Notes under the pieces: generated by a model | Database searches by the model: none | Seen by the model: only the letters and a program-made list of their open reading frames with translations | Told to the model about the DNA's origin: nothing | Assembly: GCA_963678315.1 (NCBI GenBank) | Contig: OY782781.1 | Location: 1,920,001-1,984,000 of the forward strand | Source: Candidatus Cloacimonadales bacterium | GTDB taxonomy: Bacteria; Cloacimonadota; Cloacimonadia; Cloacimonadales; JAFGVF01 | DNA length: 64,000 bases | Direction: 5' to 3' | Position numbers and translations under genes: made by a program | Part shown: positions 4,501-46,930 of the stretch, piece after piece | Position numbering within the stretch: the stretch's first letter is position 1 | Layout of the letters: every line of letters begins with the position of its first letter

Positions 4501-5596
4501 TCTTGAAACCATTTGTTGTGAATGTCTTTGTGTTTAGTGTGGCTGATAAATCTGGTTTAGTAACCTTACCTTGAACTGTTAGAGTTGCATTAATATTGCT
4601 AAAGATATTATTGATTCTCTTATTTAAATCATAATCATCAATTTTAGCTTTAGCATCAATATACTGGTCATTAAACATATCAAACAATCTTCCAGAAACT
4701 TGAGCTGGAATATCCATGAATGTAACATTATCACCTTCAATAAACAACTCATTAGAAGATCCAGAAACTTTTAAATCATTAATCTTTGCATCCATCCCGT
4801 AACTAGTGAAACTCAATAGATCAATAGTATTATCAAATGCTAAATAATTTAAGGTGTCGTCCAGTGTCTTTAGTTGTTTGTAGATAGTTTTACCAGAGAT
4901 AGTAGTTACAATGTTATCCAGTTTATAGATATATAGAGAATCAGGAGTGAAAGAATTAGCATTCATTAGAATTTCTTCCATACCTTCACTATTAAGACTT
5001 ACATCAACCTGCAGAGTGTTATCATTAGCATCTTTTATCACTGTTGTTACTTGCTTATTAGCATCTCTATTATAGACTAGGTCTAAATCATGAGCTTTTT
5101 GTGCCAGATAGAAATACTCTTTAAATGATATTTCAACATCTGCTGATGCTCCCTCTATAAACGCTGTTCTTGCATACTTAGTTATGTCAAATTTAGCAGA
5201 CTTTTCTTTTTTGTCATCACTCTGTTTGCCTACGAACTTTTTGGAAAAGTCAATCTTTGGATTTGAGACATAAAGTGAATCCACAATATTTGAAAAACGG
5301 TCTTCTCCAGAAGAGAATAATGAGGAATAGTTAAGAGCTGCATCTAAGTAGTCAACACTTACATCATACAAAGCATTGTTATCTTTTACCTTCAATTTGG
5401 AAATTGTTATATTCTCACTTCCGATATGGATTTCATCAAGAGTAATCTCAGCCTTAGCTAACTTTGATAAGTTATTTTCTAAATATGATTTAGCTATTAC
5501 ATTCCTAAAACTTATGATAGTAACAGGAATTACTAAAAAGATAATGCTAAAAATAGCTAATGAGAATATTAAAATCCTCTTATTTCTTTTTCTCAT
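1592..5596 (-). CDS. TamB/AsmA-like large envelope protein
   Basis: 1334 aa, N-terminal membrane anchor, long beta-rich body, TamB-like C-terminal region, next to lol-like genes. Confidence 0.6.
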   Translation of the reverse strand: MRKRNKRILIFSLAIFSIIFLVIPVTIISFRNVIAKSYLENNLSKLAKAEITLDEIHIGSENITISKLKVKDNNALYDVSVDYLDAALNYSSLFSSGEDRFSNIVDSLYVSNPKIDFSKKFVGKQSDDKKEKSAKFDITKYARTAFIEGASADVEISFKEYFYLAQKAHDLDLVYNRDANKQVTTVIKDANDNTLQVDVSLNSEGMEEILMNANSFTPDSLYIYKLDNIVTTISGKTIYKQLKTLDDTLNYLAFDNTIDLLSFTSYGMDAKINDLKVSGSSNELFIEGDNVTFMDIPAQVSGRLFDMFNDQYIDAKAKIDDYDLNKRINNIFSNINATLTVQGKVTKPDLSATLNTKTFTTNGFKIDNIDADVSYIDNSIQVELLNSEYNGNIFKGKASYIDDILKADLVVGNSSDSYLKINGKLEAQGLLLNKSPFFRLDINDAIVTYNDINTPLINGYLLLKDKSVYSNLASNNLSLVANGNILDNSYNFKIDLKDFSPLQTFNSDNVFLNNASPLINGSIAGSYKNNRLSSNLDIIATAYNDDLFIPLKTNFSWDIKNKNFDIENEVIEAKIFNTHTNAVGKLSFANGNILNIDLNINDNISFKGHDLLHDTRGLLVNIDKVNLREIKQLLAEDIASALPVGFCTAQMDYCYSSPEISGNINLTGVKFKNFVGMGLKVDFQGTKDNINISSLKFYNERQVLLEANGIASLTNGYKLTLDSNLSNLDLSDYNYLVPIKGYINGDLSFIYDSNNLDQSGLRFNGLGSNINFADFEIQDSHLNVLINPRNIRVDNLYVNSHGFAELTAFGDLSYNLLSGEFIPSNKRFYLNLNTQAYQILHKLSPETFPEGDFSIDSELIVSIGENGLIYEEGYIKSNKGFLKIKGQPERFNNLALSASIKNNLLNIEQLQAQIGSGYLVINNDTSNENDNFFIGELVLGQFKINTSERGVVINIPVYMPEDETGTVNISGRTTQSAIIKGPFDDLKIEAEVKVSNASCIYPPDTQDLLALITSISKKTFSRKRSSSSSSFRALAFTLDSKLIIGENVNYVTYPANIEVTPGSYLVLTHDKEWSIPNAYFSAEGGYVDFLGNQFNTEFVEVVINNIKFIISGNFSKRANDGSLVTLKISNDDTERNGIEALSLTLESDNPEDKTQIDALNRLRYGEDYGSLTQEQKTEFLQNETVLMLGSNMDNSVFNDFLKPLELFIRRRIYLDYFYIRPGFIKNMFNEYIVSDIGDQEEKVYESELEQFGSSILLNNLSVNFGREVYKRLFFNYTGLFQEATNLQNQSKMVYYQDLEFKYNFKFGTKVSYKYKLRPSDENSHEIMLYHSLNF

Positions 5597-6251
5597 ATTT
5601 ATTTAATTTACCATCAATGAGGGTATAGTGGCTGTCAACTTCTCTTGGTAGTGATAAATCATGAGTTACTAGCACTACTGTTAATCCTTCACTGTTGAGT
5701 TTTCTTATCAAGTCCATCACCAAAAGAGAATTCTCTTGATCTAGATTACCTGTAGGTTCATCAGCAATCAGTATTTTTGGGTTCGTAACAATTGCTCTTG
5801 CTATTGCTATTCTTTGCTCTTCACCTCCACTTAGCTTTCGTGGTAAATGATTCTTTCTATCTTCCAAACCGATAATTTTAAGCATATTTAATGCTCTTTC
5901 CTTAGCTTCTTTCTTGCTAACATTTTGAATTAAGAGAGGAATCATTATGTTTTCTAAAGCAGTGAAGTCTTCAAGTAAGAAATGAGATTGAAATACAAAG
6001 CCCATATTGATATTTCTAAAACGTTCAACACTTTTGATGCTTGAAACACCTTTGTTCAGAATAGATAGTGATCCTGATGATGGTTTATCAAGCAAACCTA
6101 TTAAATGAAGCAAGGTACTTTTGCCACATCCTGATGCCCCTGTAATATATACAAATTCTCCTTGATGAATGTCTAAGTTAACATCTTTTAACACTTCTAA
6201 CTTCTTATTTGCATCTATAAAACTTTTCTTTATATTTTGTAATTTTACCAT
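5580..6251 (-). CDS. lolD: Lipoprotein-releasing ABC transporter ATPase (LolD-like)
   Basis: [26 protein letters not shown]; adjacent to a LolC/E-like permease. Confidence 0.8.
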
Positions 6252-6253
6252 AA

Positions 6254-7480
6254 TTAGCTTCTTATTATTTCTATAACATTTAATTTGTTTATTGTTTTCA
6301 ACGACCAGAATATTGTTGTTGAAACTATTACTAGTGCAGTCAGGTAGATTGTTAGATAAACATCAAGTGAAGGACTAACAATTATTTTATCTATAAAATA
6401 TACATCTGCTTTAAGTAACTGATCGGAGTATTTAGATAACTGATAAGCACCAATAGTACCTAGTATCAAGCCTAGGATGATACTTATATTAGTTAAGAAG
6501 AGTGAAAAATAATAATACAGTTTTTTTACTTGTCTTTTGGTTAGTCCTAAGGTGAGCAAAATGCCAATTTCCACATTTCTTTCTAATATTATTGAACTAA
6601 GAGTACTAACTACGTTGAATGACGCAACTAAAACAATAATATTTAATATTAGGAAAATCATAATCCTTTGTAGTTCAAGTGTTGAAAACAAAGATTCGTT
6701 ATTCTGTAGTTGATTAAATCCATATAGATTTCTATTATTAAAAGAGTTTTTAGCATGGAATCTATTAAGAGTATTGGATATATTTGTTGAACTATTATCT
6801 TCTAGTAATACGGGAATAAAACTAAAGCTATCTTTACTCTCTATCAAGCCTTGTACTTTAGTTAATTCTAATAAGGATATACGCTTATCAATTTCATATA
6901 AACCAGTACTGTAATTTTCTTTAACTATGAAGTCTGAACTCTTCTTGATTAATCCAAAAATAGATAATCTAATTGATTTAGGCAATATTACCTGAACAGT
7001 ATCTCCCTGTGATACATTTAAATCTTTTGCTAGATATTTCCCAAGAATAATCTCGTTGTCTCTTAAGTGAAAGTCTTCGTTTTTAGAAAAAGGATAATTA
7101 ATAGAATTGAAATCAATATTGTCGTTGTCAAAAGACCCAAGTGTTGATGGCTTTGTAACATTGCCCTTGGAAAGTAAGACAGGTATCTCAATTTTCTTGT
7201 CCCAAGCTTTAATCTTAGTAATGTCAGAAATAGAATTTTCAATATAATTTACTTCCTTGTTAGAAAGATTATTAGTGGTAGAATTTACTATTATATCTGA
7301 GAATGATCTCTTAAAGACACTTTTAAGAGTATCCTGGTATCCTTGAAATAGGAGCATAGCCATTGTTAATGCTGATATTGATAGGGTTATACTAATCAGC
7401 ATAAATAAAGAGTTTTTACCCCAACTGGATTTTCTAACCTTCAGGATTTTGCTAATATAAAGTTTTATAAGTAGATTCAA
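6254..7480 (-). CDS. LolC/E-family (FtsX-like) ABC permease
   Basis: One TM, periplasmic domain and three C-terminal TMs; EIGILLTLG motif. Confidence 0.8.
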   Translation of the reverse strand: MNLLIKLYISKILKVRKSSWGKNSLFMLISITLSISALTMAMLLFQGYQDTLKSVFKRSFSDIIVNSTTNNLSNKEVNYIENSISDITKIKAWDKKIEIPVLLSKGNVTKPSTLGSFDNDNIDFNSINYPFSKNEDFHLRDNEIILGKYLAKDLNVSQGDTVQVILPKSIRLSIFGLIKKSSDFIVKENYSTGLYEIDKRISLLELTKVQGLIESKDSFSFIPVLLEDNSSTNISNTLNRFHAKNSFNNRNLYGFNQLQNNESLFSTLELQRIMIFLILNIIVLVASFNVVSTLSSIILERNVEIGILLTLGLTKRQVKKLYYYFSLFLTNISIILGLILGTIGAYQLSKYSDQLLKADVYFIDKIIVSPSLDVYLTIYLTALVIVSTTIFWSLKTINKLNVIEIIRS

Positions 7481-9976: not shown

Positions 9977-10238
9977 TACTAGTCCCTTTGAAAAAAAGTC
10001 GATTTTTCAAGGAGACCCTTAAGGAAGGAGTTAGAAGTGAGGAGTTACTGGGAACGCTTTGCCTTTAGTCCGGCTGCTGCCGGATAGCTGGCTAATACTG
10101 GGATCGCCAGCCTCTGTGCTGGCTTCACTTAGAACGTAGTGATAAGTGAATTTGTAGAGACGTTTGAAAAAAAACGTCTCAGAAACAAGCTAGAAGCTTG
10201 TGCACCTAGATGGTGATGGAGAGTAAGCATTCACCGAT
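9977..10238. repeat. Mosaic REP-like hairpin cluster, copy 1 (homologous to 46531-46864 and 19101-19150)
   Basis: Shared blocks CTTTGAAAAAAAG[T/C]CGATTTTTCAA.GAGACCCTTAA and TACTGGGATCGCCAGCCTCTG.GCTGGCTTCACTTAGAACGTAGT.ATAAGTGAATTTGTAGAGACG...ACGTCTC. Confidence 0.8.
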
Positions 10239-15865: not shown

Positions 15866-16876
15866 GTGATAAAGTCCATTTCAATAAGCAAAGACAAAGC
15901 TATTATTATAGACCAAACTTTATTACCTTCTGAAGAGAAGTATATTGAAATCAATAATTCAGACCAGATGATAGAAGCTATAAAGAAGTTACGAATTAGA
16001 GGTGCACCAGCTATAGGTATTGCTGGAATGTATGCTTGCTGGCTAGCATTTTGTGAAGAGAAGATGAACGCATGTAATCAAAAAGCTCTTCTTACAAAGA
16101 TTAATGCAATTGAAATAGCTAGGCCTACCGCTGTAAACTTGTCTTATGCAACTGATAAGGCAAGAAGCTATGTAAATAGTCATAGCTTTAACTGGGATAA
16201 TGACCAACTATATCAAATGACTGATTTTCTTATGGATGTGGAACTAAACAATTCTCAGAAGATGGGTCAACATGGAGCTAACCTTATTTATAGTGGTCAA
16301 AGAGAGTTAAGAATACTCACTCATTGCAATACCGGATCTTTAGCAACTTATGGAGATGGAACAGCTTTAAGTGTGATAAGAGCTTTAGCTAAGAAAACTA
16401 AGGTTAAGGTATGGGCTGATGAAACAAGACCTCTAATGCAAGGCTCTAGATTAACTATGTGGGAACTAATGAAAGATGGTATTGACTGTACATTAATTAG
16501 TGATTCTATGGCTGCTCATACAATTAAAACACAAGGGATTGATTTAATAATTACTGGAGCAGATAGGATTGCTCTGAATGGCGATTCTGCTAACAAGATT
16601 GGCACTTATAATTTATCTATTTTAGCAAAACATTTCAATATTCCTTTCTATATAGTTGCTCCTACAACGACTATCGATTATGCTATTGAGAGTGGATCTA
16701 GCATCGTTATTGAAGAAAGAGATTCCAAGGAGTTAATTTTTGTTGGTACTAAACAGACAGCTCCAGCAAATGCAAAAGTGTTTAATCCAGCTTTTGATGT
16801 TGTAGATAGTTCTTATATAGAATCGATTATAACTGAAGAAGGAGCATTCAAGTATCCTTATGATTTCAGAAAATAA
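15866..16876 (+). CDS. mtnA: S-methyl-5-thioribose-1-phosphate isomerase
   Basis: IRGAPAIG, RPTAVNL, LTHCNTGSLAT, ETRP, GADRIA.NGD.ANKIGTY, NPAFDV. Confidence 0.95.
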   Translation: MIKSISISKDKAIIIDQTLLPSEEKYIEINNSDQMIEAIKKLRIRGAPAIGIAGMYACWLAFCEEKMNACNQKALLTKINAIEIARPTAVNLSYATDKARSYVNSHSFNWDNDQLYQMTDFLMDVELNNSQKMGQHGANLIYSGQRELRILTHCNTGSLATYGDGTALSVIRALAKKTKVKVWADETRPLMQGSRLTMWELMKDGIDCTLISDSMAAHTIKTQGIDLIITGADRIALNGDSANKIGTYNLSILAKHFNIPFYIVAPTTTIDYAIESGSSIVIEERDSKELIFVGTKQTAPANAKVFNPAFDVVDSSYIESIITEEGAFKYPYDFRK

Positions 16877-17621
16877 TAAAGCAATAATAGAGAAAGTATC
16901 AGAGCTTTTTGATAAGGCTAAGAATGTAGTCTTTTTTACAGGGGCAGGTATCTCAGTTGAAAGTGGAATAGCTCCTTTTAGAGGTAACAATGGAGTATGG
17001 ACTAAGTATGATGCAAAGGTTTTGGAACTCAACTATTATCTTAAAAACCCTAGTAAATGTTGGCCAGTTATAAAAGAACTTTTTTACAGTAAGAAAGTGA
17101 TTGATGCTACTCCAAATTCAGCACATTATGCTATAGCTGAGTATGAAAGACAAGGTAAATCACTGGCTGTAATAACCCAGAATATTGATAATTTACATCA
17201 AAAAGCAGGAAGCAAGAAAGTGGTTGAACTGCATGGGAATATTTCAAGGTTTTATTGCCAGAAATGTAGTAAGCAGTGGTTTTCTAATGATGTAGTTCTA
17301 GATGATGATAAGCCAATTTGCAAGGATTGTGGTGGATTGCTTAAACCTGATTTTGTTTTTTTTAGTGAGCCTCTATCTAGTAAATCTTTAGAAGATGCTT
17401 ATGAGTTTTCCATGAAGGCTGATTTGTTTGTTATTATTGGTTCTTCTGGTGAAGTTCAACCAGCAAATCAATTTCCATTGCTAGCAAAGCAGTCAAAGGC
17501 TACAATCATTGAATTCAATACAGATGAGTCAAATTATACAAAATATATTACTGATTATTTTATAAAGGGTAAAGTAGGTAGAACTTTACCAATGTTGTTA
17601 AAATATAAAGGAGAGTTATAA
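16860..17621 (+). CDS. cobB: NAD-dependent protein deacylase (sirtuin)
   Basis: TGAGISVESGI.PFRG, TQNIDNLH, ELHG, Cys4 zinc site. Confidence 0.92.
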   Translation: MISENNKAIIEKVSELFDKAKNVVFFTGAGISVESGIAPFRGNNGVWTKYDAKVLELNYYLKNPSKCWPVIKELFYSKKVIDATPNSAHYAIAEYERQGKSLAVITQNIDNLHQKAGSKKVVELHGNISRFYCQKCSKQWFSNDVVLDDDKPICKDCGGLLKPDFVFFSEPLSSKSLEDAYEFSMKADLFVIIGSSGEVQPANQFPLLAKQSKATIIEFNTDESNYTKYITDYFIKGKVGRTLPMLLKYKGEL

Positions 17622-18688
17622 TGAAAAAGATTATTATAGTTATGTTAATGACATTAATTTCAACTACCACGATTCTTGGTGTAACAGTAGAAGAACTAAT
17701 GGGCAATGTTAAATCAATTAAGGCAAATATAAAAGATGATAAAGCTATTGTAAATTGGCAGTTTAAAAGTGGGATTGAGTGTGATTCTGTAGTGGTTTAT
17801 AGAAGTTATTCACCGATGGAGATTCCTCTTGATAGATATTTATATCCAATAAGAAAGAATACAGTTACTGGTAAAAGTGTTTTCTCTGATGAATACTTAG
17901 CTTCTAATGTAGATTACTATTATAAAGTTGTTGGTTATCTTAATGGGGAACTGGCTGGCATTTCTGATAATTGCAAAATCTCCGTAAGTGGAGATTCTTT
18001 AAGAACTGTAGATATAGATTTCAAAAATGTGCATATAGAAATTGATAAAGTTAATTATTTGCTCTCTATTAAGAATAATGATACTACTCTAAAATCATAT
18101 CCAATAGCCATGGGGGGTAACCCTTTTAGCAGAAAGATTATTAGGGATAATGAGTCAAGTCCAGAAGGTATATATAATGTTGTTTATATCCAAAGAAATG
18201 CTACATATTACAAAGCACTAGATATTAACTATCCAAACACAATTGATAGAGTTAGGTTTGATGTAGCAAAACAGACCGGTATGATATCACAAAGTGATGT
18301 TATTGGTGGTGAAATTCAAATTCATGGTAAAGGTATTTACAATAACTGGACATTTGGTTGTTTTGCATTAAGAAATGATGATATCGATGAAATCCTTGAT
18401 TCTAAACTAATCAGACGTGGAACTAATATTGTTATCTTTGGTTATGAGATTGAAAGAGAAGATTTAGGGTATATTTTTAGGTATTGGCCAAAGAGTGAAG
18501 TCAAAGTTATCCAAAGAAAATTAAGAGATCAAGGCTATAAGGTCGGTAGTGATGGAGTTCTTGGTCCAAACTCTAGACGTCAACTTGGTAAGTTCCAAAA
18601 AGACAATGGTTTGGCTGTTACCTGTGATTTAGATAAAGACACGTGCAAAAAACTGGGTTATATCCCTAGTAGCATTAAAAATAAATAA
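17621..18688 (+). CDS. L,D-transpeptidase (YkuD) family protein with C-terminal peptidoglycan-binding domain
   Basis: SPEGIY, IQIHG...WTFGCFALRN, and IQRKL...DGVLG...FQK in the C-terminal domain. Confidence 0.85.
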   Translation: MKKIIIVMLMTLISTTTILGVTVEELMGNVKSIKANIKDDKAIVNWQFKSGIECDSVVVYRSYSPMEIPLDRYLYPIRKNTVTGKSVFSDEYLASNVDYYYKVVGYLNGELAGISDNCKISVSGDSLRTVDIDFKNVHIEIDKVNYLLSIKNNDTTLKSYPIAMGGNPFSRKIIRDNESSPEGIYNVVYIQRNATYYKALDINYPNTIDRVRFDVAKQTGMISQSDVIGGEIQIHGKGIYNNWTFGCFALRNDDIDEILDSKLIRRGTNIVIFGYEIEREDLGYIFRYWPKSEVKVIQRKLRDQGYKVGSDGVLGPNSRRQLGKFQKDNGLAVTCDLDKDTCKKLGYIPSSIKNK

Positions 18689-18717
18689 CTTGCTTAAAAA
18701 ACAATTAGGCATATTTT

Positions 18718-19077
18718 GTGGCTATGAGTTATAAAGATAAACAGATTTTTTTTAGGACACATATGAAAGGATTTATCCAAGGATTTTTATTCATACTTGT
18801 CATTATTTTAATTATTGGATTTTTCCAATTGATAGGCTACATTGACGTTCAGATTAATGGTGAAGTACCTACACCAAATTCGGAAGCTAGTTCTTGGAAT
18901 GAATCAGATGAACAACCCGATGGTGTTTATAATCGTATCGAGCCTAAAGAAATGAACAGTTCTGCTAAAAAGAACTTTGATTCAGACTTTGGCTCTAAAC
19001 CATTAAACCAAAAGGATAGAGATAAGTCTGAAGAAAATAAGCAAGATAGAATGAAAAAGTCTTTCAAAGGCTTTTAG
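18718..19077 (+). CDS. Hypothetical membrane-anchored protein
   Basis: One TM followed by a hydrophilic tail. Confidence 0.6.
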   Translation: MAMSYKDKQIFFRTHMKGFIQGFLFILVIILIIGFFQLIGYIDVQINGEVPTPNSEASSWNESDEQPDGVYNRIEPKEMNSSAKKNFDSDFGSKPLNQKDRDKSEENKQDRMKKSFKGF

Positions 19078-19100
19078 TTTTAACTGAATTATAGGGCTTC

Positions 19101-19190
19101 ATTAAGGGTCTCCTTGAAAAAACGACTTTTTTTCAAAGAGGCAAGTAAGGATGAAGAGTTAATGAGCTGTTAGGAGTTAGTAGTTAGGAT
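19101..19190. repeat. Inverted copy of the dispersed hairpin block plus a GAGTTAG tract at the left edge of the R-M island
   Basis: 19101-19150 is the reverse complement of 46531-46580 with few mismatches; it is followed by GTTAGGAGTTAGTAGTTAGG. Confidence 0.8.
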
Positions 19191-19303
19191 AGGGTTGACT
19201 GGAAATGCCCAGCTGGGGAAAAGAATAAAAAAACTTAAATAATATCAAAAATTAAATAGGTATAGGAAACATATATCTAATAATTGAATGAAGTAGGAAA
19301 AAT

Positions 19304-21835
19304 ATGGCTAAAGAAGCAAAAGCAAGGATTAAAATTAATAGGTTATTAGAAGAAGCTGGTTGGCGATTCTTTGATAGTGAAGAGGGTAAAGCTAATATTG
19401 AGCTTGAGAAGGGTGTAAAAATAACAAAGCAGTATTATGACCAGATGGGAAACAATTTTGAGGGATACAAGAACGGTTTTACTGATTACACACTATTAAA
19501 TAAAAAAGGTTTTCCTTTAGTTGTTCTGGAAGCAAAACGTGAAGAAAAAGATCCTATGGATGGCAAAGAACAAGCTAGACGCTATGCTAAGAGCTTGAAT
19601 GTAAATTTTGTAATTCTTTCCAATGGTAATTTACACTATTTCTGGGACTTAAGAAAAGGTAATCCTGTTGTAATTACCTCGTTTCCTACTGAAGATTCAT
19701 TAAACTATTATTCTCGTTCAAATCCCAACCCAAAGAACCTTGTAGAAGAAATTATAACAAAAGAATATATACTAGAAACACAATATCCATTATATAAAAC
19801 AGATCCAGACTATCTTGATAAAACTAAACACAAGGATTTCTTTGAAAAACATTCAGAGTTTAGATTGCTGAGAGACTATCAAATAAATGCTTTAAAATCT
19901 GTTCAAGAAGCAGTTAAAAATGGCTCTGATAGATTCCTTTTTGAAATGGCGACAGGTACGGGGAAAACTTTAACATCAGCTGCTCTAATAAAGTTATTTT
20001 TAAAGACTGGAAATTCTTCTAGAGTTCTATTTTTGGTTGATAGGTTAGAATTAGAAAAACAAGCAGCTACTAATTTTAACAACTATCTAAAAAATGATTA
20101 TACTAGTGTAGTATATAAAGAAAATAAAGATGAATGGAATAGTGCTAGGATTGTTGTGACAACTGTTCAAAGTTTATTGCATAACGATAAGTATCAAAGA
20201 CTATTCTCTCCTACTGATTTTGATTTAATTATTTCAGATGAAGCACATAGAAGTATTAACGGAAATGCCAGAGCACTCTTTGAATACTTCTGTGGTTATA
20301 AATTGGGGTTAACAGCAACACCTAAAGATTATTTAAAGAATATTAATGCAGAAGAGCTCAGGACAAACGATTCAAGAGCTTTAGAAAAAAGATTATTATT
20401 AGATACTTATAAAACTTTTGGTTGTGAGACAGGTAATCCAACCTTTAGATATAGTCTACTTGATGGAGTGAAAGATGGCTATTTAATTAATCCTATAGTT
20501 GTTGATGCTAGAACAGATATTACTACACAACTTCTTTCAGATCAAGGCTATTCTGTAATGGTTAAAGATGAAAATGGTGAGTTGCAAGAAAAAGCTTATA
20601 CTCAAAAATCTTATGCAAAGAAATTTTTCTCTCAGGAGACAGATATAGCTTTTTGTCTAAGCTTTATAGAAAATGCTCTTAGAGACCCTATAACTAATGA
20701 AATAGGTAAATCAATAGTGTTTTGTGTTAGTCAAGACCATGCTAATAATATATCTATGATTCTAAATGAGATAATAGAAAAGAAATACCCAGGTAAATAC
20801 AATTCTGATTTCGCTGTACAAGTGACTTCTAGAATTACAGATGCTCAAACTATGACTGTAAACTTCTCAAATAAAAATCTGAATGGTAGAACAACATTCC
20901 TTGATGGTTATAAGTCTGACAAGACAAGGGTTTGTGTTACAGTGGGTATGATGACAACAGGTTATGATTGTCCAGACTTATTGAATGTTGCTTTAATGCG
21001 ACCAATCTTTTCACCTTCTGACTTTGTACAAATAAAAGGAAGAGGAACTAGGACAAATACCTTTAAGTATGAGACAAGAAGAAATGGTATAACTGAAACT
21101 ATAAAACAGAATAAGACTAATTTCAAATTGTTTGATTATTTTGCTAATTGTGAGTATTTTGAGACAAAGTTTGATTATGATCAAGTAATAAAACTACCTA
21201 AATATTCATCAACAATTAAAGTAGATAATAATGACAATAATGATGATAAGATAAGTATAGATAGTTATAATTCTATAATAGCTGACCCTATAACTGAGCT
21301 TACAGAAGAACAGATAGGTTTAGATGGAATGAAGATTGATAGAAAGCTATATGAGAAGTTTGAAGAAGAGGTAACTAACGATAAAGAGCTTATTGAGCTT
21401 CTTGAAAATGAAGACTTTTCTGCTATGGAAGATTATATCAATGAAAACATCTTCAATAAACCATCTGAGTTTTATAACTTAATTAAACTTAGAAATGCAA
21501 TCAAAGTTGATAGAAGAGTCTCACTTAGAGAAATGATACTAAAAGCCTTTGGTCTTATCGATAGGTTTAAAGGAAAACATGAAATGTTAGATAGTGAGTT
21601 TGCTAAATTTGTAAGCATATACCATCCAGATAATGAGCATGTCCATGTAGCTAGGAAATTCTTTAAAGCTTATGTTACAGATGAAGAGATAAGAACAATT
21701 ATTAAAAAGAAAGAGTTTGGTAGGTTTGCTACTAACTCAAAGATAACTATAAATGATATAAGAGAATTAAACGGTTTCAGAGAGATAATCCCTGAATATG
21801 TTAAAGATTATGTTAATATAAATCAGTTTATGTAA
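19304..21835 (+). CDS. hsdR: Type I restriction enzyme R subunit
   Basis: TDY...VLEAK nuclease, EQARRY, MATGTGKT, DEAH, GLTATP, TTGYDCP, QIKGRGTR. Confidence 0.92.
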   Translation: MAKEAKARIKINRLLEEAGWRFFDSEEGKANIELEKGVKITKQYYDQMGNNFEGYKNGFTDYTLLNKKGFPLVVLEAKREEKDPMDGKEQARRYAKSLNVNFVILSNGNLHYFWDLRKGNPVVITSFPTEDSLNYYSRSNPNPKNLVEEIITKEYILETQYPLYKTDPDYLDKTKHKDFFEKHSEFRLLRDYQINALKSVQEAVKNGSDRFLFEMATGTGKTLTSAALIKLFLKTGNSSRVLFLVDRLELEKQAATNFNNYLKNDYTSVVYKENKDEWNSARIVVTTVQSLLHNDKYQRLFSPTDFDLIISDEAHRSINGNARALFEYFCGYKLGLTATPKDYLKNINAEELRTNDSRALEKRLLLDTYKTFGCETGNPTFRYSLLDGVKDGYLINPIVVDARTDITTQLLSDQGYSVMVKDENGELQEKAYTQKSYAKKFFSQETDIAFCLSFIENALRDPITNEIGKSIVFCVSQDHANNISMILNEIIEKKYPGKYNSDFAVQVTSRITDAQTMTVNFSNKNLNGRTTFLDGYKSDKTRVCVTVGMMTTGYDCPDLLNVALMRPIFSPSDFVQIKGRGTRTNTFKYETRRNGITETIKQNKTNFKLFDYFANCEYFETKFDYDQVIKLPKYSSTIKVDNNDNNDDKISIDSYNSIIADPITELTEEQIGLDGMKIDRKLYEKFEEEVTNDKELIELLENEDFSAMEDYINENIFNKPSEFYNLIKLRNAIKVDRRVSLREMILKAFGLIDRFKGKHEMLDSEFAKFVSIYHPDNEHVHVARKFFKAYVTDEEIRTIIKKKEFGRFATNSKITINDIRELNGFREIIPEYVKDYVNINQFM

Positions 21836-21844
21836 AATAATTAA

Positions 21845-22434
21845 GCCACAGATTAACACGGATGCACACAGATAATAAAAAAAAGAATTAATCAGTGTCT
21901 ATCAGCGTGAATCAGTGGCAAGAAAAGTAAGTAATTATTAAGCCACGGATTAACACAGATAAACTCGGATAAAAAAAGAATTAATCAGTGGTAATAAAAA
22001 GAAAGTAATATATTAGCCTCGGATTAACACGGATGCACACAGATAATAATAAAAAGAACTAATCCGTGTCTATCAGTGAAAATCTGAGGCAAGAAAAGTA
22101 AGTAATTATTAAGCCACGGATTAACACAGATAAACTCGGATAAAAAAAGAATTAATTCAGTGGTAATAAAAAGAAAGTAATATATTAGCCTCGGATTAAC
22201 ACGGATGCACACAGATAATAATAAAAAGAACTAATCCGTGTCTATCAGTGAAAATCTGAGGCAAGAAAAGTAAGTAATTATTAAGCCACGGATTAACACA
22301 GATAAACTCGGATAAAAAAAGAATTAATTCAGTGGTAATAAAAAGAAAGTAATATATTAGCCTCGGATTAACACGGATGCACACAGATAATAATAAAAAG
22401 AACTAATCCGTGTCTATCAGCGTAAATCAGTGGC
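21845..22434. repeat. Palindromic repeat array 1 (7 units; 171-172-bp dimeric higher-order repeat x3)
   Basis: Units start at 21845, 21942, 22016, 22113, 22188, 22285 and 22360. Left arm is GCC[A/T]C[A/G]GATTAACAC[A/G]GAT..AC.C.GAT; right arm is ATC.GTGT.TATCAG.G..AATC.G.GGC. Confidence 0.95.
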
Positions 22435-22466
22435 AAAGAAAGATAGGTTATTGAGGAGGATGATTA

Positions 22467-22847
22467 ATGTTATATGAAGGTTTATCTGATAAGATAATAA
22501 AATGTTTTTATGATACATATAACGAACTAGGTAGGGGGTTCTTAGAAAATATTTATGAAAATGCACTAAGTATAGTATTTCAAGAGAATGGTTTAATCCA
22601 TCAAAAGCAAAAAGATATTGATGTTTTTTTTCATAAAAAGAAAATAGGTTATTATAGAGCAGACATAATCGTTGAAGATAAAATTATATTGGAATTAAAG
22701 GCTGTTGCAAAGATAAAACCTGAGCATCAAGCTCAGTTAATAAATTATCTTAAAGCTACTGGAATAAAAATAGGATATATACTAAATTTTGGAGATAAAC
22801 CAGAGTTTAGAAGATTTATATTTGATAGTTCGAATGTAAATAAATAA
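22467..22847 (+). CDS. GxxExxY protein (PD-(D/E)XK nuclease-like)
   Basis: GFLENIY signature, RADIIVEDKIILELKA, QLINYLKAT..G..LNFG; GAGGAGG RBS. Confidence 0.92.
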   Translation: MLYEGLSDKIIKCFYDTYNELGRGFLENIYENALSIVFQENGLIHQKQKDIDVFFHKKKIGYYRADIIVEDKIILELKAVAKIKPEHQAQLINYLKATGIKIGYILNFGDKPEFRRFIFDSSNVNK

Positions 22848-22863
22848 ATTAAAGAGATGTTTA

Positions 22864-24144
22864 GCCACGGATAAACACGGATGAACTCAGATAAAAAAGA
22901 ATTAATCAGTGTGTATCAGCGTGAATCTGAGGCAAGAAAAGAAATTAATATTTAAGCTACGGATTAACACGGATGCACACAGATAATAAAAAAAAGAATT
23001 AATCATTGTGTATCAGCGTGAATCAGTGGCAAGAAAAGAAAGTAATAAATAAGCCACGGATTAACACAGATGAACTCGGATGAAAGGGAATTAATCAGTG
23101 TTTATCGGCGTGAATCTGAGGCAAGAATTTAAAGTAATAAATAAGCCACAGATTAACACAGATAAACTCGGATGAAAGGGAATTAATCAGTGTTTATCGG
23201 CGTGAATCTGAGGCAAGAATTTAAAGTAATAAATAAGCTACGGATTAACACGGATGAACTCAGATAAAAAGAGAATTAAATCAGTGTGTATCAGCGTGAA
23301 TCAGTGGCAGAAAATAAAGAAATTATTAAGCCACGGATTAACACGGATGTACTCGGATGAAAGGGAATTAATCAGTGTTTATCAGCGTGAATCTGAGGCA
23401 AGAATTTAAAGTAATAAATAAGCCACAGATTAACACAGATGAACTCGGATGAAAGGGAATTAATCAGTGTTTATCAGCGTGAATCTGAGGCAAGAATTTA
23501 AAGTAATAAATAAGCCACAGATTAACACGGATGAACTCAGATAAAAAGAGAATTAAATCAGTGTGTATCAGCGTGAATCTGAGGTAAGAATCTAAAGTAA
23601 TAAATAAGCTACGGAAAAACACAGATGAACTCGGATAAAAAAGAATTAATCAGTGTCTATCAGCGTGAATCTGAGGCAAGAATTTAAAGTAATAAATAAG
23701 CCACAGATTAACACAGATAAACTCGGATAAAAAGAGAATTAAATCAGTGTGTATCAGCGTGAATCTGAGGCAAGAATTTAAAGTAATAAATAAGCCACAG
23801 ATTAACACGGATGAACTCAGATAAAAAAGAATTAATCATTGTGTATCAGCGTGAATCTGAGGCAAGAATCTAAAGTAATAAATAAGCTACGGAAAAACAC
23901 AGATGAACTCGGATAAAAAAGAATTAATCAGTGTCTATCAGCGTGAATCAGTGGCAAGAAAAGAAAGTAATAAATAAGCTACGGAAAAACACAGATGAAC
24001 TCGGATAAAAAAGAATTAATCAGTGTGTATCAGCGTGAATCTGAGGCAAGAATTTAAAGTAATAAATAAGCCACAGATTAACACGGATGCACACAGATAA
24101 TAATAAAAAGAACTAATCCGTGTCTATCAGTGAAAATCAGTGGC
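22864..24144. repeat. Palindromic repeat array 2 (14 units, 92-97-bp period)
   Basis: Units start at 22864, 22956, 23053, 23145, 23237, 23330, 23422, 23514, 23608, 23700, 23794, 23886, 23978 and 24070, with the same consensus as array 1. Confidence 0.95.
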
Positions 24145-24170
24145 AAATAAATAAGTTATTAGGATGAAAA

Positions 24171-26672
24171 ATGTTAGATAAAACAACGAAAAGAAAAATA
24201 GATAATGCTAGAGATATATTGGTAGGCAAAGTACCAATACCTAAGTCACAAATAGACTTAATAACCATAACACTAATATATAAGTTTATGGATGATATGG
24301 ACAGACAAGCAGAAGAGATTGGTGGCAACGCCAGCTTTTTTGTGCAAGATTTTGAAAAGTATGCTTGGGCTAAAGTAATGGACCAATCACTTGGTGGTTA
24401 TGAAAGATTACAGCTTTTTGATGAAGGTCTTATCAAAATGAATCAAAACCCTCATATTCCTGCTTTATTCAGAGAAATATTTAAGAATGCCTTCTTACCT
24501 TTTAGAGATCCTGAAACTCTCAACATGTTTTTAGAAGAAATAAATGATTTTGATTATGGTCATTCAGAAAAGCTTGGTGATGCTTTTGAATACTTACTTT
24601 CCATTATGAGCTCACAGGGAGATGCAGGACAATTCCGAACTCCTAGGCACATTATCGAGTTTATAGTTGATGTTGTAAATCCAACTAAAACAGATAAAAT
24701 ATTAGATCCAGCTTGTGGAACAGCAGGTTTCTTAATCTCTGCCTATAAACACATAATGGAAGAGAATACCGAAGATTACTATGGAGATATGCTTAATAGT
24801 GATGAAAGAGATACACTAGCTAATAATATAGTTGGCTATGATATATCACCAGATATGGTAAGGCTTAGTTTAGTTAATATGTTTTTACATAAGTTCCCAA
24901 ACCCACAAATATTTGAATATGATACGTTAACTAATACTGAAAGATGGGAAGATAGCTTTTCTTGTATATTAGCTAACCCTCCTTTTATGTCTCCTAAAGG
25001 TGGAATAAAACCACATTCAAGGTATGCTATAAAATCTAAGCGTTCAGAAGTACTTTTTGTTGATTATATGATGGAACACCTAACCGAAGATGGTAAAGCT
25101 GGAATAATTGTTCCCGAAGGTATCATCTTCCAAAGTCAAAAAGCTCATAAAGAACTACGTAAGAAGATGGTTGAACAAAACTACCTTTGGGCTGTTGTCT
25201 CCTTACCAAGTGGGATATTCCAACCCTACTCAGGTGTAAAAACCTCAATCCTACTATTTGATAAAGCAAGAGCAAAAGCAAGTGATAAAATAGTTTTTGC
25301 TAAAGTTCAAAATGATGGCTATTCATTAGGATCACAACGAACACCTATCAATAAAAATGATCTACCAAAATTAATTGATGCTCTTAATTATTACAAAAAT
25401 AAAAATGAAATCTGTGAAAATCAGTGTGAATCTGTGGCAAAAGAAGATTGTATTAGCCACGGATTAACTCAGATTGAAACGGATAAAGAGAATATATTTA
25501 AAAATATTTCAATCGTAGAAAAATCAAAACTTGCAGAAAATGATTATAATTTGAGTGGAGATAGGTATATTGTAGAGAGTATAATGAATCATTCAAACTG
25601 GGAAATGGTGTACTTAGGTGATGTATGTGAATTGGTGAGAGGTGTTACATACACTAAAAGTGATGAAGTAGATGAAAATGGGCATATGATATTGAGAGCA
25701 AATAATATATCACTAGAAAGTAATACACTTAACCTTGATGACATTAAAATGGTTAAACTGGACAAGCAACCTAAACTTCATAAGAAACTTAGTAAAGATG
25801 ATATCCTAATATGCTTAGCAAGTGGTAGTAAAAAACATATTGGTAAGGTTGCCTATAGCGATTCTGAAACTGAATATTATTTTGGTGGATTTATGGGAGT
25901 TGTTAGGTGTACTACTTTCAAGAACATTCCTAAATTTATATATCATTTACTTAAACACAGTAAGTTTAATGAATTCATCAATTCACAAATATCAGGTGCA
26001 AACATTCATAATTTGAATAGTAAAATATTATATAAGTACCTAGTTCCTCTCCCACCCCTCGAAGTCCAAGAAGAGATTGTCGCAGAAATCGAAGGATATC
26101 AAAAGATAATTGATGGAGCAAAACAAGTTGTAGACAACTACAAACCTCATATTGATATTGATCCTGAGTGGGATGTTGTGGAATTCGAGGATGTATGCAC
26201 ACTTGAATATGGAAAAAGTTTACCGAAAAGCAAAAGAATTGAAGGTGAATTTCCTGTAGTAGGCTCTAATGGTATTACTGGATATCATAATGAGTTCCTA
26301 CTTGAAGCTCCTTCTATTATTGTTGGTAGAAAAGGATCTGCTGGTGAAGTCGTATTTATTAGCAAGCCATGCTATCCGATTGATACAACCTACTATGTAG
26401 AATTAAAATCAGAAGATACAAAATTGAAGTATGTTTACTACATTTTAAAATCTATGAATCTTGTAAAACTAAAAGGTGGAGCTGGTATACCAGGATTGAA
26501 TCGTAATGATGTATATAGAACAATAAAAATACCAAAACCTTCATTAGAAATTCAGCAGCGTATAGTTTCAAAAATCGACGAAGAGCAAAAGTATGTAGAT
26601 GGTTGTAAAAAACTAATTGAAATTTATGAGCAAAAGATAAAAGAAAGAATAGACAAGGTTTGGGAGGGGTAA
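24171..26672 (+). CDS. Fused type I R-M methyltransferase-specificity subunit (HsdM-HsdS), N6-adenine MTase
   Basis: GQFRTP, DPACGTAGF, ANPPF; then two TRDs with PLPPLEVQEEIV and PSLEIQQRIV conserved helices. Confidence 0.9.
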   Translation: MLDKTTKRKIDNARDILVGKVPIPKSQIDLITITLIYKFMDDMDRQAEEIGGNASFFVQDFEKYAWAKVMDQSLGGYERLQLFDEGLIKMNQNPHIPALFREIFKNAFLPFRDPETLNMFLEEINDFDYGHSEKLGDAFEYLLSIMSSQGDAGQFRTPRHIIEFIVDVVNPTKTDKILDPACGTAGFLISAYKHIMEENTEDYYGDMLNSDERDTLANNIVGYDISPDMVRLSLVNMFLHKFPNPQIFEYDTLTNTERWEDSFSCILANPPFMSPKGGIKPHSRYAIKSKRSEVLFVDYMMEHLTEDGKAGIIVPEGIIFQSQKAHKELRKKMVEQNYLWAVVSLPSGIFQPYSGVKTSILLFDKARAKASDKIVFAKVQNDGYSLGSQRTPINKNDLPKLIDALNYYKNKNEICENQCESVAKEDCISHGLTQIETDKENIFKNISIVEKSKLAENDYNLSGDRYIVESIMNHSNWEMVYLGDVCELVRGVTYTKSDEVDENGHMILRANNISLESNTLNLDDIKMVKLDKQPKLHKKLSKDDILICLASGSKKHIGKVAYSDSETEYYFGGFMGVVRCTTFKNIPKFIYHLLKHSKFNEFINSQISGANIHNLNSKILYKYLVPLPPLEVQEEIVAEIEGYQKIIDGAKQVVDNYKPHIDIDPEWDVVEFEDVCTLEYGKSLPKSKRIEGEFPVVGSNGITGYHNEFLLEAPSIIVGRKGSAGEVVFISKPCYPIDTTYYVELKSEDTKLKYVYYILKSMNLVKLKGGAGIPGLNRNDVYRTIKIPKPSLEIQQRIVSKIDEEQKYVDGCKKLIEIYEQKIKERIDKVWEG
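25410..25484. repeat. In-frame permuted copy (right arm then left arm) of the array repeat inside hsdM-S
   Basis: ATCTGTGAAAATCAGTGTGAATCTGTGGC...GCCACGGATTAACTCAGATTGAAACGGAT encodes ICENQCESVAKEDCISHGLTQIETD. Confidence 0.85.
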
Positions 26673-26674
26673 GT

Positions 26675-27475
26675 ATGGAAGAATATATATATAATTTATC
26701 TCGTTTTTATCCAATTACTATTAGAGATCAAAGTCATATTGATTACATAGAAGGATTAAAAACGTCTTTTTTAGATAATATAGAAACAAGTAATTATCAG
26801 TTTGCTTTTTTTTCTTATCATTTGTTATTTATGGGATTTATATATTATTCTATAGCAACTTATAGAGAATTATATCAAGAGCATTTTGAACAAAGTTTAT
26901 ATTTATTAACAGGCAACAAAGATAGATTGAAACTATTTAATCAAACAGGTAAAATTTTTGATTTTTCTCATGAAAATGAGAGCACTATTATTAGATTATT
27001 ATCAGTATTTAACTGTGATAAAATGGTAATTAACGATTTGAAGAGACTTATAAAAAAGAGAAATGATATAGGACACTGTAATGCAAAAAATGAGTTCGTA
27101 GACCTTAAAAATCTTGAAAAAGAGTTAGACAAATATCTTGTAATAGCAGATCATATACATAAGTCTTTGGTGGATATTAAAAGCTGCAAATTCATTGATT
27201 ATATTAAAGATACTTTTGTAGACAAATTTTATTTGGATTATGAACTAGACGATTTTGAAGAGGATGATTATTTAAGTGAAAATGATGTTATTACTGAACT
27301 AAATGAGAATTATATTCCTGATAATTACATTTCTGAAAATGATATAGAAGAATTGAAGAGAATTAATTTATCAGATTTTGAAAAAATTGAAGAACATAAA
27401 AATTTAACTAAAATATATAGCTTTATGATTGAGAAATGGCAAGAAGAATACAATTTGGAGGAAAGAGAAAATTAA
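26675..27475 (+). CDS. Hypothetical protein with putative HEPN RNxxxH motif
   Basis: ATG at 26675 with GGAGG RBS, just after the hsdM-S stop; helical; KRLIKKRNDIGH; acidic C-terminus. Confidence 0.6.
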   Translation: MEEYIYNLSRFYPITIRDQSHIDYIEGLKTSFLDNIETSNYQFAFFSYHLLFMGFIYYSIATYRELYQEHFEQSLYLLTGNKDRLKLFNQTGKIFDFSHENESTIIRLLSVFNCDKMVINDLKRLIKKRNDIGHCNAKNEFVDLKNLEKELDKYLVIADHIHKSLVDIKSCKFIDYIKDTFVDKFYLDYELDDFEEDDYLSENDVITELNENYIPDNYISENDIEELKRINLSDFEKIEEHKNLTKIYSFMIEKWQEEYNLEEREN

Positions 27476-27664
27476 CAATTTGATTGTAGAAAGCAGTTTT
27501 CCTAGTATATCATTAGAGGAATTTTTTTTCAGACAATAGTTGATTTAACAGAAGCTTTTGCTTCTAATACAGGTATTGAAACTTCTTTGATCGATTTTGG
27601 TGTTCTTGAATATTTTAAAATTAATAGTTTGAAATAACATTCATGGATTTAAAGACATTAATTT

Positions 27665-28675
27665 TTATTTTGTAACAATATTAACAAGCATTTTTGACAA
27701 GAGAAGCTTAGGATCCAAATCAGTTGACTTAAGTTTTAAATCTGTTTCAAGCAAGTAATCAAAAATCTCCTGCATCCTTTTATCTTTATAATTCCAGGCA
27801 AAATTAATATAATCTTTTCTGAATTTAATATATACATCTGCTAAATAGTTTGAGGCAATTTCTTGTTGCGATACGCCCTTGGACAGTAGATATTTTACCT
27901 TCCAAATCTTTTGAAAAAAACGAGTAAGCATAACAACAACAAAAGGTGAATTTTTGCTTTCTTCTGATTCAAGTAATTTAATCAGTACTTGCAAGCTGAC
28001 TTTAATATTTCGAGCACCAAGAGCATTCTGCAACTCAAAAATAGTATTTGCTCTATTATCTTTCATGCAGGTTTGGATATCTTCTACTTTGATTGTACTG
28101 CTCTTACCAATGTAAATAAGTATCTTTTGAAGCTCATTGTAGGCTGTATAATAATCTGCTTCAATTTTAGAAGCAAAGAGTGAAATAGCGTCTCTATTGG
28201 CTCGTATATTCAATTTCCTAAGTTCAGATTGTAGCCACTTTTCTATTTCCCAATATCCAGCTGGAGGATTAGTCTCGATAACTGTAAACTTACTGAATTT
28301 ACGGGCAGTACTTGATCTTCCATCTTGTTTTTCACAATGAATAATTAAGATTGAAGTTTCAGGAATATTACTAATATAATCAGCTACCTTTAATTTTTCA
28401 GGCTCTCTCAATAGCTCAAAGCTTCTAACCAAAATAACACGATATTCGGCTAGGAACGGAAACATTTCTAATTGTTCTATAATATCAGCACTTTTACAAT
28501 TGCTAGCGGATAAGTTGATGAAATCAAATTCTGAACTATCCTTAGAAGTGAATCTTCTGAGAAGTAACTGTATAATCCTATCAGCAAGAAAATGATCTTC
28601 TCCAATAAGGTAATATACATTACTTGGGTCATGCATTTTGAAAGAGTTTATAAATTCAGGAGCTTTATATTTCAT
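27665..28675 (-). CDS. holA: DNA polymerase III delta subunit
   Basis: YYLIGEDHFL, PFLAEYRVILV, NELQKILIY, IFELQNAL, DLKLKS. Confidence 0.88.
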   Translation of the reverse strand: MKYKAPEFINSFKMHDPSNVYYLIGEDHFLADRIIQLLLRRFTSKDSSEFDFINLSASNCKSADIIEQLEMFPFLAEYRVILVRSFELLREPEKLKVADYISNIPETSILIIHCEKQDGRSSTARKFSKFTVIETNPPAGYWEIEKWLQSELRKLNIRANRDAISLFASKIEADYYTAYNELQKILIYIGKSSTIKVEDIQTCMKDNRANTIFELQNALGARNIKVSLQVLIKLLESEESKNSPFVVVMLTRFFQKIWKVKYLLSKGVSQQEIASNYLADVYIKFRKDYINFAWNYKDKRMQEIFDYLLETDLKLKSTDLDPKLLLSKMLVNIVTK

Positions 28676-46530: not shown

Positions 46531-46930
46531 CCTTACTTGCCTCTTTGAAAAAAAGCCGATTTTTCAATGAGACCCTTAATGCAGGAGTTAGGAGGGAGGA
46601 ATTAGTGATGAGTTAGGAGGAGGAATTAGTGATGAGTTAGGAGGAGGAATTAGTGATGAGTTAGGAGGAGGAATTAGTGATGAGTTAGGAGGAGGAGTTA
46701 GTTATGAGTTAGGAGTTAGGAGTTAGTGCTAGCTGGCAAAGGGGAGTTTGGAGTTACTGGGATCGCCAGCCTCTGCGCTGGCTTCACTTAGAACGTAGTT
46801 ATAAGTGAATTTGTAGAGACGCTTGGAAAAACGTCTCAAAAAGGGAGTGTAAGCATCCACCGATAGGTTGAACGGAGTTCATGCTTACGCAAAATAGATT
46901 CGTAAGCTGGGAAGCTTTCAGTCCCGGTTT
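46531..46930. repeat. Mosaic REP-like hairpin cluster, copy 2
   Basis: Same blocks as 9977-10238, plus GTAAGCAT...ATGCTTAC and AAGCTGGGA...TCCCGGTTT hairpins. Confidence 0.8.
46596..46715 (+). repeat. 24-bp tandem repeat x5 (GAGGAATTAGTGATGAGTTAGGAG)
   Basis: ATTAGTGATG at 46601, 46625, 46649 and 46673, with a variant at 46697. Confidence 0.92.

Follow-up and report, generated by a model that had tools for sequence, protein, structure and literature searches.

We describe a block of short repeats surrounding a small gene of the GxxExxY family (PF13366, PDDEXK_3) within a type I restriction-modification (R-M) operon. It lies in a stretch of 64,000 nucleotides (nt) from a Candidatus Cloacimonadales bacterium (assembly GCA_963678315.1, contig OY782781.1, positions 1,920,001 to 1,984,000); this whole stretch is called the window below. 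The gene, preceded by 7 and followed by 14 repeat units, occupies the space between hsdR and a gene in which hsdM and hsdS are fused (hsdM-S or hsdMS). An original prediction, made from the sequence alone, had proposed this arrangement, with a gap entirely filled by the block and a strong ribosome-binding site in front of the small gene. The open reading frame (ORF) map, profile searches and the coordinates of genes and arrays bear out all three points (Table 1). The block looks like a much-amplified case of a widespread kind of selfish cassette.

Table 1. Features of the hsdR-hsdMS locus, in window coordinates
Feature	Position	Strand	Evidence
hsdR, type I restriction subunit	19304..21835	+	ResIII 1.9e-41, HSDR_N, Helicase_C
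Upstream array, 7 box-repeat units	21844..22445	+	Tandem Repeats Finder and unit-start anchoring
Ribosome-binding site GAGGAGG of the GxxExxY gene	22453..22459	+	7 nt 5' of the ATG at 22467
GxxExxY/PDDEXK_3 gene, 126 amino acids (aa)	22467..22847	+	PF13366 8.2e-40, TIGR04256 2.2e-37
Downstream array, 14 units	22863..24144	+	Tandem Repeats Finder and unit anchoring
Fused hsdM-hsdS gene, 833 aa	24171..26672	+	N6_Mtase 2.1e-57, Methylase_S 3.1e-38 (two stretches)
Gene-less arm DNA inside hsdM-S	25410..25484	+	Box-chain scan; sequence and translation inspected

Profile searches identify the host operon as type I, with an HsdR helicase-nuclease, an N6-adenine methylase and an HsdS part containing two target-recognition domains. 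The fusion of hsdM and hsdS is shared by all eight aligned relatives. The block (21836-24162) is an insertion, because homology to the closest relative (G007) breaks at the end of hsdR and restarts just before hsdMS. It runs through hsdR at 91.9% nucleotide identity, ends exactly at the stop codon (21835) and resumes at 24163, 8 nt before the hsdMS start (24163-25387 at 90.6%). Empty alleles, which the original prediction had suggested looking for in relatives, turn out to be the commonest state. In four of nine relatives no more than about 30 nt separate hsdR from hsdMS and, among metagenome operons of this type (80 gathered, 75 scorable), the gap is 47 nt or less in 55 and exceeds 60 nt in 20. 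The metagenome scan yielded no near-identical strain, the best match being 70%.

When the units are anchored on their start, their number is exactly 21. The 18 full units that were aligned have the same order: three direct heptamer boxes (C.C.GAT, at 10-nt spacing) forming a left arm, an A-rich loop, three inverted boxes (ATC.G.G) forming a right arm, and a spacer. This A/T spacer of about 20 nt is constant and has been duplicated together with each hairpin. For the upstream array, Tandem Repeats Finder reports 21836-22441 with a period of 172 (3.5 copies, 95% matches); here four units of 87-97 nt alternate with three of 74-75 nt, which retain only the outer box of the right arm. For the downstream array, it reports 22863-24100 with a period of 92 (13.3 copies, 87% matches), and these units are 92-97 nt long except for the last (76 nt). 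Higher-order periods of 172, 186 and 278 nt also occur, the latter two in the downstream array. The 172-nt block at 22015-22186 is repeated at 22187-22358 with 100% identity, and this duplication is therefore recent. In addition, adjacent downstream units are 97-98% identical. The pattern fits array growth by recent unequal recombination or slippage rather than 21 separate insertions.

The units had been described as palindromic. Inverted arms are indeed present, but the palindromes are imperfect: with 29 possible pairs counted, 75.9% of 493 cells are paired, a level reached by 471 of 500 shuffles, and three columns of the alignment never pair. None of the 18 units varies at box positions 1, 3, 5, 6 or 7; pairs are few or absent at positions 2 and 4 and in one column between boxes. 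Only two cells are altered on both sides of a pair, and there is no covariation of pairing. G:T and A:C mismatches number 18 and 17, and transversions dominate (97); the corresponding figures for 41 cassettes of other genomes are 53 and 46, with 155 transversions. The conserved feature is the box, carried on opposite strands in the two arms, and not the stem. Conservation of the box rather than of pairing points to recognition of duplex DNA and argues against a selected RNA hairpin, and the presence of the same box on opposite strands of the two arms fits such recognition.

These measurements bear directly on the possibility that the repeats act as RNA, in which case the arms would pair within the mRNA of the operon, as do the stems of intervening sequences (IVSs) in 23S rRNA, and be cut by RNase III or by the encoded nuclease. 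Cutting would then free the cassette mRNA, insulate the operon or yield unit-length small RNAs, a product that the original prediction had also envisaged. The units do fold (-9 to -28 kcal/mol), cassettes elsewhere are strongly co-oriented with their host operons (51 loci against 3, see below), neither a terminator nor an own promoter signal was seen, and genes for IVS proteins occur in similar cassettes. However, pairing is broken at nearly every second box base, is no better than in shuffled sequences and shows no compensatory changes; there is no excess of G:U over A:C on the sense strand; and the opposite strand folds about equally well (-6.5 to -30 kcal/mol). Rfam gave no family match in the block (only chance microRNA matches, E of at least 0.095), and at gathering score a tRNA was the sole match in the whole window. 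A single-strand reader, moreover, could not recognise both arms, because in RNA these carry complementary sequences. We therefore find the small-RNA role unsupported and an RNA-level function quite unlikely.

Three other identities were considered for the arrays and rejected. Neither array contains a terminator-like site, and promoter-like sites in them are at background level; a terminator function was discarded on the first of these results and on anatomy. A CRISPR array was discarded on the constancy of the spacers, which are copied with the unit, and on the lack of any cas gene among the neighbours scanned (16860-28675), where the proteins encoded around the cassette are Sir2, YkuD, HsdR, HsdMS and DNA polymerase III delta. 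An integron cassette was rejected on anatomy (arms on both sides and arrays of boxes, which we take to be unlike attC sites), no dedicated integrase or attC search having been run.

The small protein is predicted, from its modelled core and its motifs, to be a minimal PD-(D/E)XK nuclease. PF13366 is the only Pfam family that it matches at E up to 0.001 (136.2 bits for a cut-off of 22, residues 6-117), and it also matches TIGR04256, 'GxxExxY protein' (128 bits for a cut-off of 35). The D...ELK core was originally thought to be intact and has proved to be so: among 82 relatives D66 and K78 are invariant, as are Q90 and Y94, and E76 is nearly invariant (at least 90%). Beside the nuclease triad D66, E76 and K78 stands Q90xxxY94, which we take to be the QxxxY motif of the RecB/Cas4 clade. 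An AlphaFold2 model based on the 82-sequence alignment (predicted local distance difference test score, pLDDT, 94.4) begins with two helices (4-21 and 27-40), which are followed by three strands, a third helix and another pair of strands. Its nearest Foldseek match is Cas4 SSO0001 (4ic1; E 1.1e-4, template modelling (TM) score 0.59), followed by lambda-type exonucleases and Hjc; a sequence search of PDB with the small protein returned nothing below E 0.06. A table in PMC3424549 gives the function of PF13366/PDDEXK_3 as 'Unknown', and the passage of PMC8934634 that mentions GxxExxY does not do so in connection with repeats.

The genome holds five GxxExxY genes, one of them split, and all five have flanks built of boxes. 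Genes 747465 and 759744 sit within nested left and right arms; gene 745256 and the window gene sit between complete hairpins. The boxes differ from one paralog to another: C.C.GAT with the outer end AGCCAC for the window gene, GAT with the outer end GAACAC for 745256, AAT for 759744, and RAG for 747465 and 765848. The four other paralogs lie in a polysaccharide cluster. A comparison of filled and empty sites among genomes of genus g2 found no clean empty site, because the polysaccharide loci, at about 80% identity and differing in content, are too divergent. The split gene (G000:C1:765848-766197, L005) is divided between two frames of 108 and 46 codons, and its RAG arms have no orphans.

The repeats had been regarded as a component of the cassette. 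The arrays do flank the gene, but related arms are also dispersed through the genome, at about 40 other places. Chains of at least three boxes number 82 in the whole genome compared with 0.6 in shuffles. Outside the five gene loci, there are 46 orphan chains of the GAT class in 20 places (0.6 in shuffled genomes), with outer ends that are AGCCAC-like in 30 and GAACAC in 11, and 24 of the AAT class, again in 20 places (none in shuffles). The same genome-wide scan outside the gene loci found no orphan chain of the RAG class. Every class of orphan arm is matched by a gene-bearing copy in the same genome. A blastn-short search of the genome with three units gave 42 hits, at this locus only; it missed the other arms because they are too short and too diverged, and these were recovered by the box-chain scans. 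A looser box pattern produced many chance hits inside ORFs and was not used, and counts of terminal 9-mers were uninformative (27-54 matches in shuffles).

Other repeats were encountered in the course of these scans. One, of about 145-260 nt with three G+C-rich hairpins, occurs at about 55 sites besides G000:C1:2076016-2077477; five copies stand in tandem, each ending in a GAT-class right arm. A hairpin-word family of the GAGTTAGG type is present in the window at 9977-10172, 19100-19190 and 46534-46831, and includes a 24-nt tandem repeat of 5.9 copies (46585-46728). One of its copies lies just upstream of hsdR, so that this side of the R-M operon also has a repeat cluster at its border.

The link between gene and arms extends across phyla. 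We fetched 80 GxxExxY loci from many phyla and one archaeal genome bin, 75 of which could be scored for inverted flanks by local alignment between 150 nt of upstream sequence and the reverse complement of an equal length downstream, using 42 neighbouring ORFs as controls. The score lies above the control 95th percentile in 58 of the 75 loci and above the control maximum in 41. The original prediction had called for such an enrichment beside GxxExxY genes, and its view that gene and repeats form a single association is supported by this survey and by the arms of all five paralogs. Relatives of one paralog are present in 154 of 232 genomes of the phylum. Where an ORF was called on both sides of the gene (65 loci), both neighbours are on its strand in 51, both are opposed in 3 and the arrangement is mixed in 11. 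We regard the element as an operon-riding cassette because of this co-orientation, its own ribosome-binding site and the lack of terminator-like sites in the arrays. At 54 loci a search for target-site duplication was negative: the ends, as placed by alignment and possibly off by a few bases, have direct repeats no longer than those of shuffled pairings.

Across phyla, the outer ends of the arms at these 54 loci share a consensus: ATAGAAC...GTTCTAT, TTAGCCAC...GTGGCTAA or TAACCAC...GTGGTTA. A TAG or TAA triplet thus follows directly on the upstream gene, at the left end. In distant taxa, a GxxExxY cassette also lies directly upstream of the same NAD-dependent epimerase-type gene (MK.G.TGQ.GFIG) in polysaccharide clusters (L034, L038, L146, L166 and G000:C1:759726-760100). 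Either a favoured junction or the transfer of entire clusters could account for this shared position.

The hsdR-hsdMS junction has received a variety of other inserts. In G007 (L017:6371-6832) the site lacks repeats and is occupied by an ORF of 154 aa; this different, nuclease-like small gene matches GIY-YIG weakly, at 20.4 bits (E 4.6e-4), slightly short of the cut-off. In L023 the site contains Fic. In L022 (relative G040, 4590-6610) there is a gene for a four-helix-bundle protein of the 23S_rRNA_IVP family (PF05635) flanked by arrays of GGATGAA-type words, followed by an Abi_2 gene and then by an array of CGACTAA-type words before hsdMS. Orphan box arms occur at the same junction in L018 and L198, and GxxExxY cassettes in two of the 75 metagenome operons (L197, with the box CACAAAA, and L209, with CACGGAR). 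These inserts are independent colonisations of one site. A permissive site in accessory DNA would account for them; the junction may also be genuinely preferred. As a separate observation, 23S_rRNA_IVP seems to be a second family of small genes that uses the same word-array packaging.

The original prediction had also offered a role as a defence accessory. The cassette would then help or tune the type I system: changes in array length might cause phase variation, for example, or expression of hsdR might be decoupled from that of hsdMS. Its position inside an R-M operon would suit this, as would the recurrence of a GxxExxY gene at the same junction in L197 and L209 and of orphan arms in L198 and L018. 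The wider sample speaks differently. At the 54 other loci no neighbour reaches the cut-off of an R-M family (one locus has two matches just under it). With 100 of 143 neighbouring ORFs scanned, 13 of these loci lie in sugar or polysaccharide clusters and the remainder in housekeeping operons, beside genes for transport, for tRNA synthetases and for biosynthesis. In this genome a polysaccharide cluster holds the other four paralogs, and the R-M junction itself accepts unrelated inserts (the weak GIY-YIG-like ORF, Fic, Abi_2 and the IVS-protein gene), as expected of a permissive site. Because the neighbours at the 54 loci are ordinary genes, the defence role is unsupported, and we consider it highly improbable.

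A gene-less piece of the same DNA lies inside hsdM-S, arranged as a right arm, a 15-nt spacer and a left arm, with three boxes in each arm. Translated in frame, it lengthens by about 20 residues the linker that precedes the first target-recognition domain. It is missing from all eight aligned relatives and begins 23 nt after homology to G007 stops at 25387. We also note that homology to G007 is lacking over 25388-26043, the first target-recognition domain, and that these arms stand exactly at the left edge of that segment; arms in this position may be a mark of domain exchange in the specificity part, or may favour it.

Box type is specific to protein clade. Among loci whose proteins resemble that of the window, 53 of 77 have boxes of the GAT class and none has RAG; among those resembling 747465, 19 of 24 have RAG and none has GAT, the remaining loci of both groups being unclear. 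Relatives of the 759744 protein add the box types CGAA, CGAG, TGAG and AAT, and box spacing is 8, 9 or 10 nt according to clade. A tree of the 90 proteins whose boxes are clear has 12 changes at box position 7 and four at position 5, compared with 31 at the unconstrained position 4 and 17 changes of spacing. When the box ends in T, residue 18 of the protein is Y in 52 of 53 cases and residue 19 is N in 51 of 53; when it ends in G (26 cases), residue 18 is always H, and 24 have K or R at residue 19. Both residues lie where helix 1 ends, immediately ahead of the GxxExxY motif. The covariation between protein and repeat that the original prediction had proposed to look for is thus present at the level of clades, but it cannot be separated from joint inheritance of gene and arms, because there are only four to six independent contrasts: residue 19 follows the box in two and is unchanged in about two (sign test p = 0.5, underpowered).

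This leads to an explanation in which gene and boxes are simply inherited together. The boxes would be read by another factor (a host protein or the enzyme of another mobile element) or would be prone to recombination, and the gene would be an unrelated passenger. The inseparability of the protein-box association from shared descent is in its favour, as are the other word arrays that flank the unrelated 23S_rRNA_IVP gene in L022 and the abundance of other hairpin-word repeats in the genome. A passenger would hardly be expected, however, to keep its catalytic residues and to accompany the arms in many phyla and an archaeal genome bin, nor would each orphan class be expected to have a matching gene copy, with the RAG class having no orphans. 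We judge passive co-inheritance to be unlikely.

The reading that we favour, and to which we would give roughly an even chance, is that the block is a selfish cassette without a promoter of its own, that the nuclease it encodes recognises the cassette's box arrays at the DNA level and that its gene-less units have been amplified in tandem. The gene would be expressed by read-through from the host operon. Its product would recognise the boxes in double-stranded form, with several protomers on each arm, much as a transposase occupies subterminal repeats, and cleavage followed by host repair or recombination would copy the arms, with or without the gene, to new sites. Gene-less arm pairs (left arm, loop, right arm and spacer) would be non-autonomous derivatives, and the 21 units would have arisen locally, through slippage or unequal recombination in the recent past. 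A broader proposal is that GxxExxY proteins are the enzymes of an unrecognised and very widespread class of prokaryotic mobile elements. As minimal Cas4-like PD-(D/E)XK nucleases, they would read arrays of 7-nt boxes through one or two residues of helix 1 (18 and 19 here) and move both the cassette and gene-less arms without target-site duplication; the elements would colonise operon junctions, and at times coding sequence in frame, and grow arrays. This we advance tentatively, as a proposal that may well prove wrong.

Several points weigh against the selfish-cassette reading. Binding of the boxes, cutting and the mode of spread are all inferred. We know of no lone PD-(D/E)XK hydrolase that performs strand transfer, and a transposase-like role would therefore need host functions. 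Target-site duplications were not found at the 54 loci, and 17 of the 75 scored loci do not exceed the control 95th percentile for inverted flanks. The order arm-gene-arm is not constant, the window gene lying between complete hairpins and not inside one. Since spacing varies from 8 to 10 nt, binding along one face of the helix is not general. The class of box is unclear in 24 of the 77 window-like and 5 of the 24 747465-like loci, and co-inheritance of gene and arms would explain the relation between protein and box equally well.

A serious variant of the same reading is a homing-type scheme. Here the nuclease would cut empty arm pairs, each a long pseudo-palindromic site, and repair from a gene-bearing copy would insert the gene in or beside them; the arms would be a homing site rather than transposon ends, and empty units would be targets or cleavage-resistant remnants. 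For this a hydrolytic nuclease suffices, and no target-site duplication was found. Moreover, in 747465, in 759744 and in most surveyed loci the gene stands between a left and a right arm, splitting the palindrome much as homing-endonuclease genes do their sites, and the classes of orphan arm match the resident genes. The scheme does not explain how gene-less arms reached about 40 new places and a coding region, however, and 21 intact empty units persist beside an intact gene, so that they must either escape cutting or be faithfully repaired. In addition, the window gene is in the spacer and not in the loop. On this evidence homing seems to us improbable.

With subscription journals outside its coverage, a literature search found no description of a GxxExxY gene-repeat pairing and no matches for TIGR04256/IPR026350. 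Among the matches listed, searches with the box strings returned only unrelated primers, and a search combining PDDEXK, terminal inverted repeats and selfish elements returned nothing relevant. If it is true that the protein reads and moves its own boxes, GxxExxY/PDDEXK_3, a large orphan family, would gain a function and a class of dispersed bacterial repeats would gain an origin. Mobile elements would also gain a new enzyme-repeat pairing, possibly with a simple, reprogrammable rule relating box to residue. For annotation, the arms create spurious ORFs, add residues to real proteins (for example, hsdM-S) and break short-read assemblies. The locus is a good test bed, with one intact gene adjoining 21 cognate units, and the other paralogs of the genome, three intact and one split, have different boxes and could serve as controls of specificity.

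Comparison with known systems provides partial likenesses only. The small protein shares with the Cas4/RecB family its fold and the D...E.K and QxxxY motifs. Unlike these enzymes, it has only 126 residues, no iron-sulphur cluster domain in the model and no CRISPR context, and the spacers of its arrays are constant. Free-standing homing endonuclease genes, for example, seg and mob of T4-like phages, are directed to one specific allele and have no cognate dispersed repeats. They resemble the cassette in being small nuclease genes between host genes that use host transcription and spread by cleavage and repair (as proposed here for the cassette); unlike them, the cassettes occupy many unrelated junctions.

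The IVSs of 23S rRNA, for example that of Coxiella burnetii with its S23p ORF (PMC4990558), likewise place a small ORF within inverted repeats in a host transcript, and the related family PF05635 occurs in the word-array cassette at the same junction in L022. The GxxExxY cassette differs in lying between protein genes, in having a stem that is not maintained by pairing and in encoding a nuclease with conserved catalytic residues. In common with insertion sequences and miniature inverted-repeat transposable elements (for example, Correia/NEMIS), it has terminal inverted repeats with internal repeated binding sites (putative here), both autonomous and gene-less copies, and occasional in-frame insertions into genes. 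In contrast to these elements, it carries no DDE, serine or tyrosine recombinase, target-site duplication was undetected at 54 loci, the gene is without its own promoter and its position relative to the arms is variable.

The original prediction had cited as a precedent REP (repetitive extragenic palindromic) elements, with their REPINs and REP-associated tyrosine transposases (RAYTs). Here the enzyme is of the PD-(D/E)XK type (PF13366) and not a Y1 HUH tyrosine transposase (TnpA-REP); the arms are composed of at least three 7-nt boxes at 8-10-nt spacing rather than a G+C-rich stem with a conserved tetranucleotide; and the cassettes are found inside operons, whose orientation they share. Both systems, in contrast, have one small nuclease-type gene for each class of repeat, flanked by its own palindromic repeats; in both, target-site duplication is not seen; and in both, many gene-less copies are dispersed between genes (here 46 and 24 orphan arms), with local clusters resembling bacterial interspersed mosaic elements. 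As an analogy, the comparison with REP/REPIN-RAYT systems is a reasonable one.

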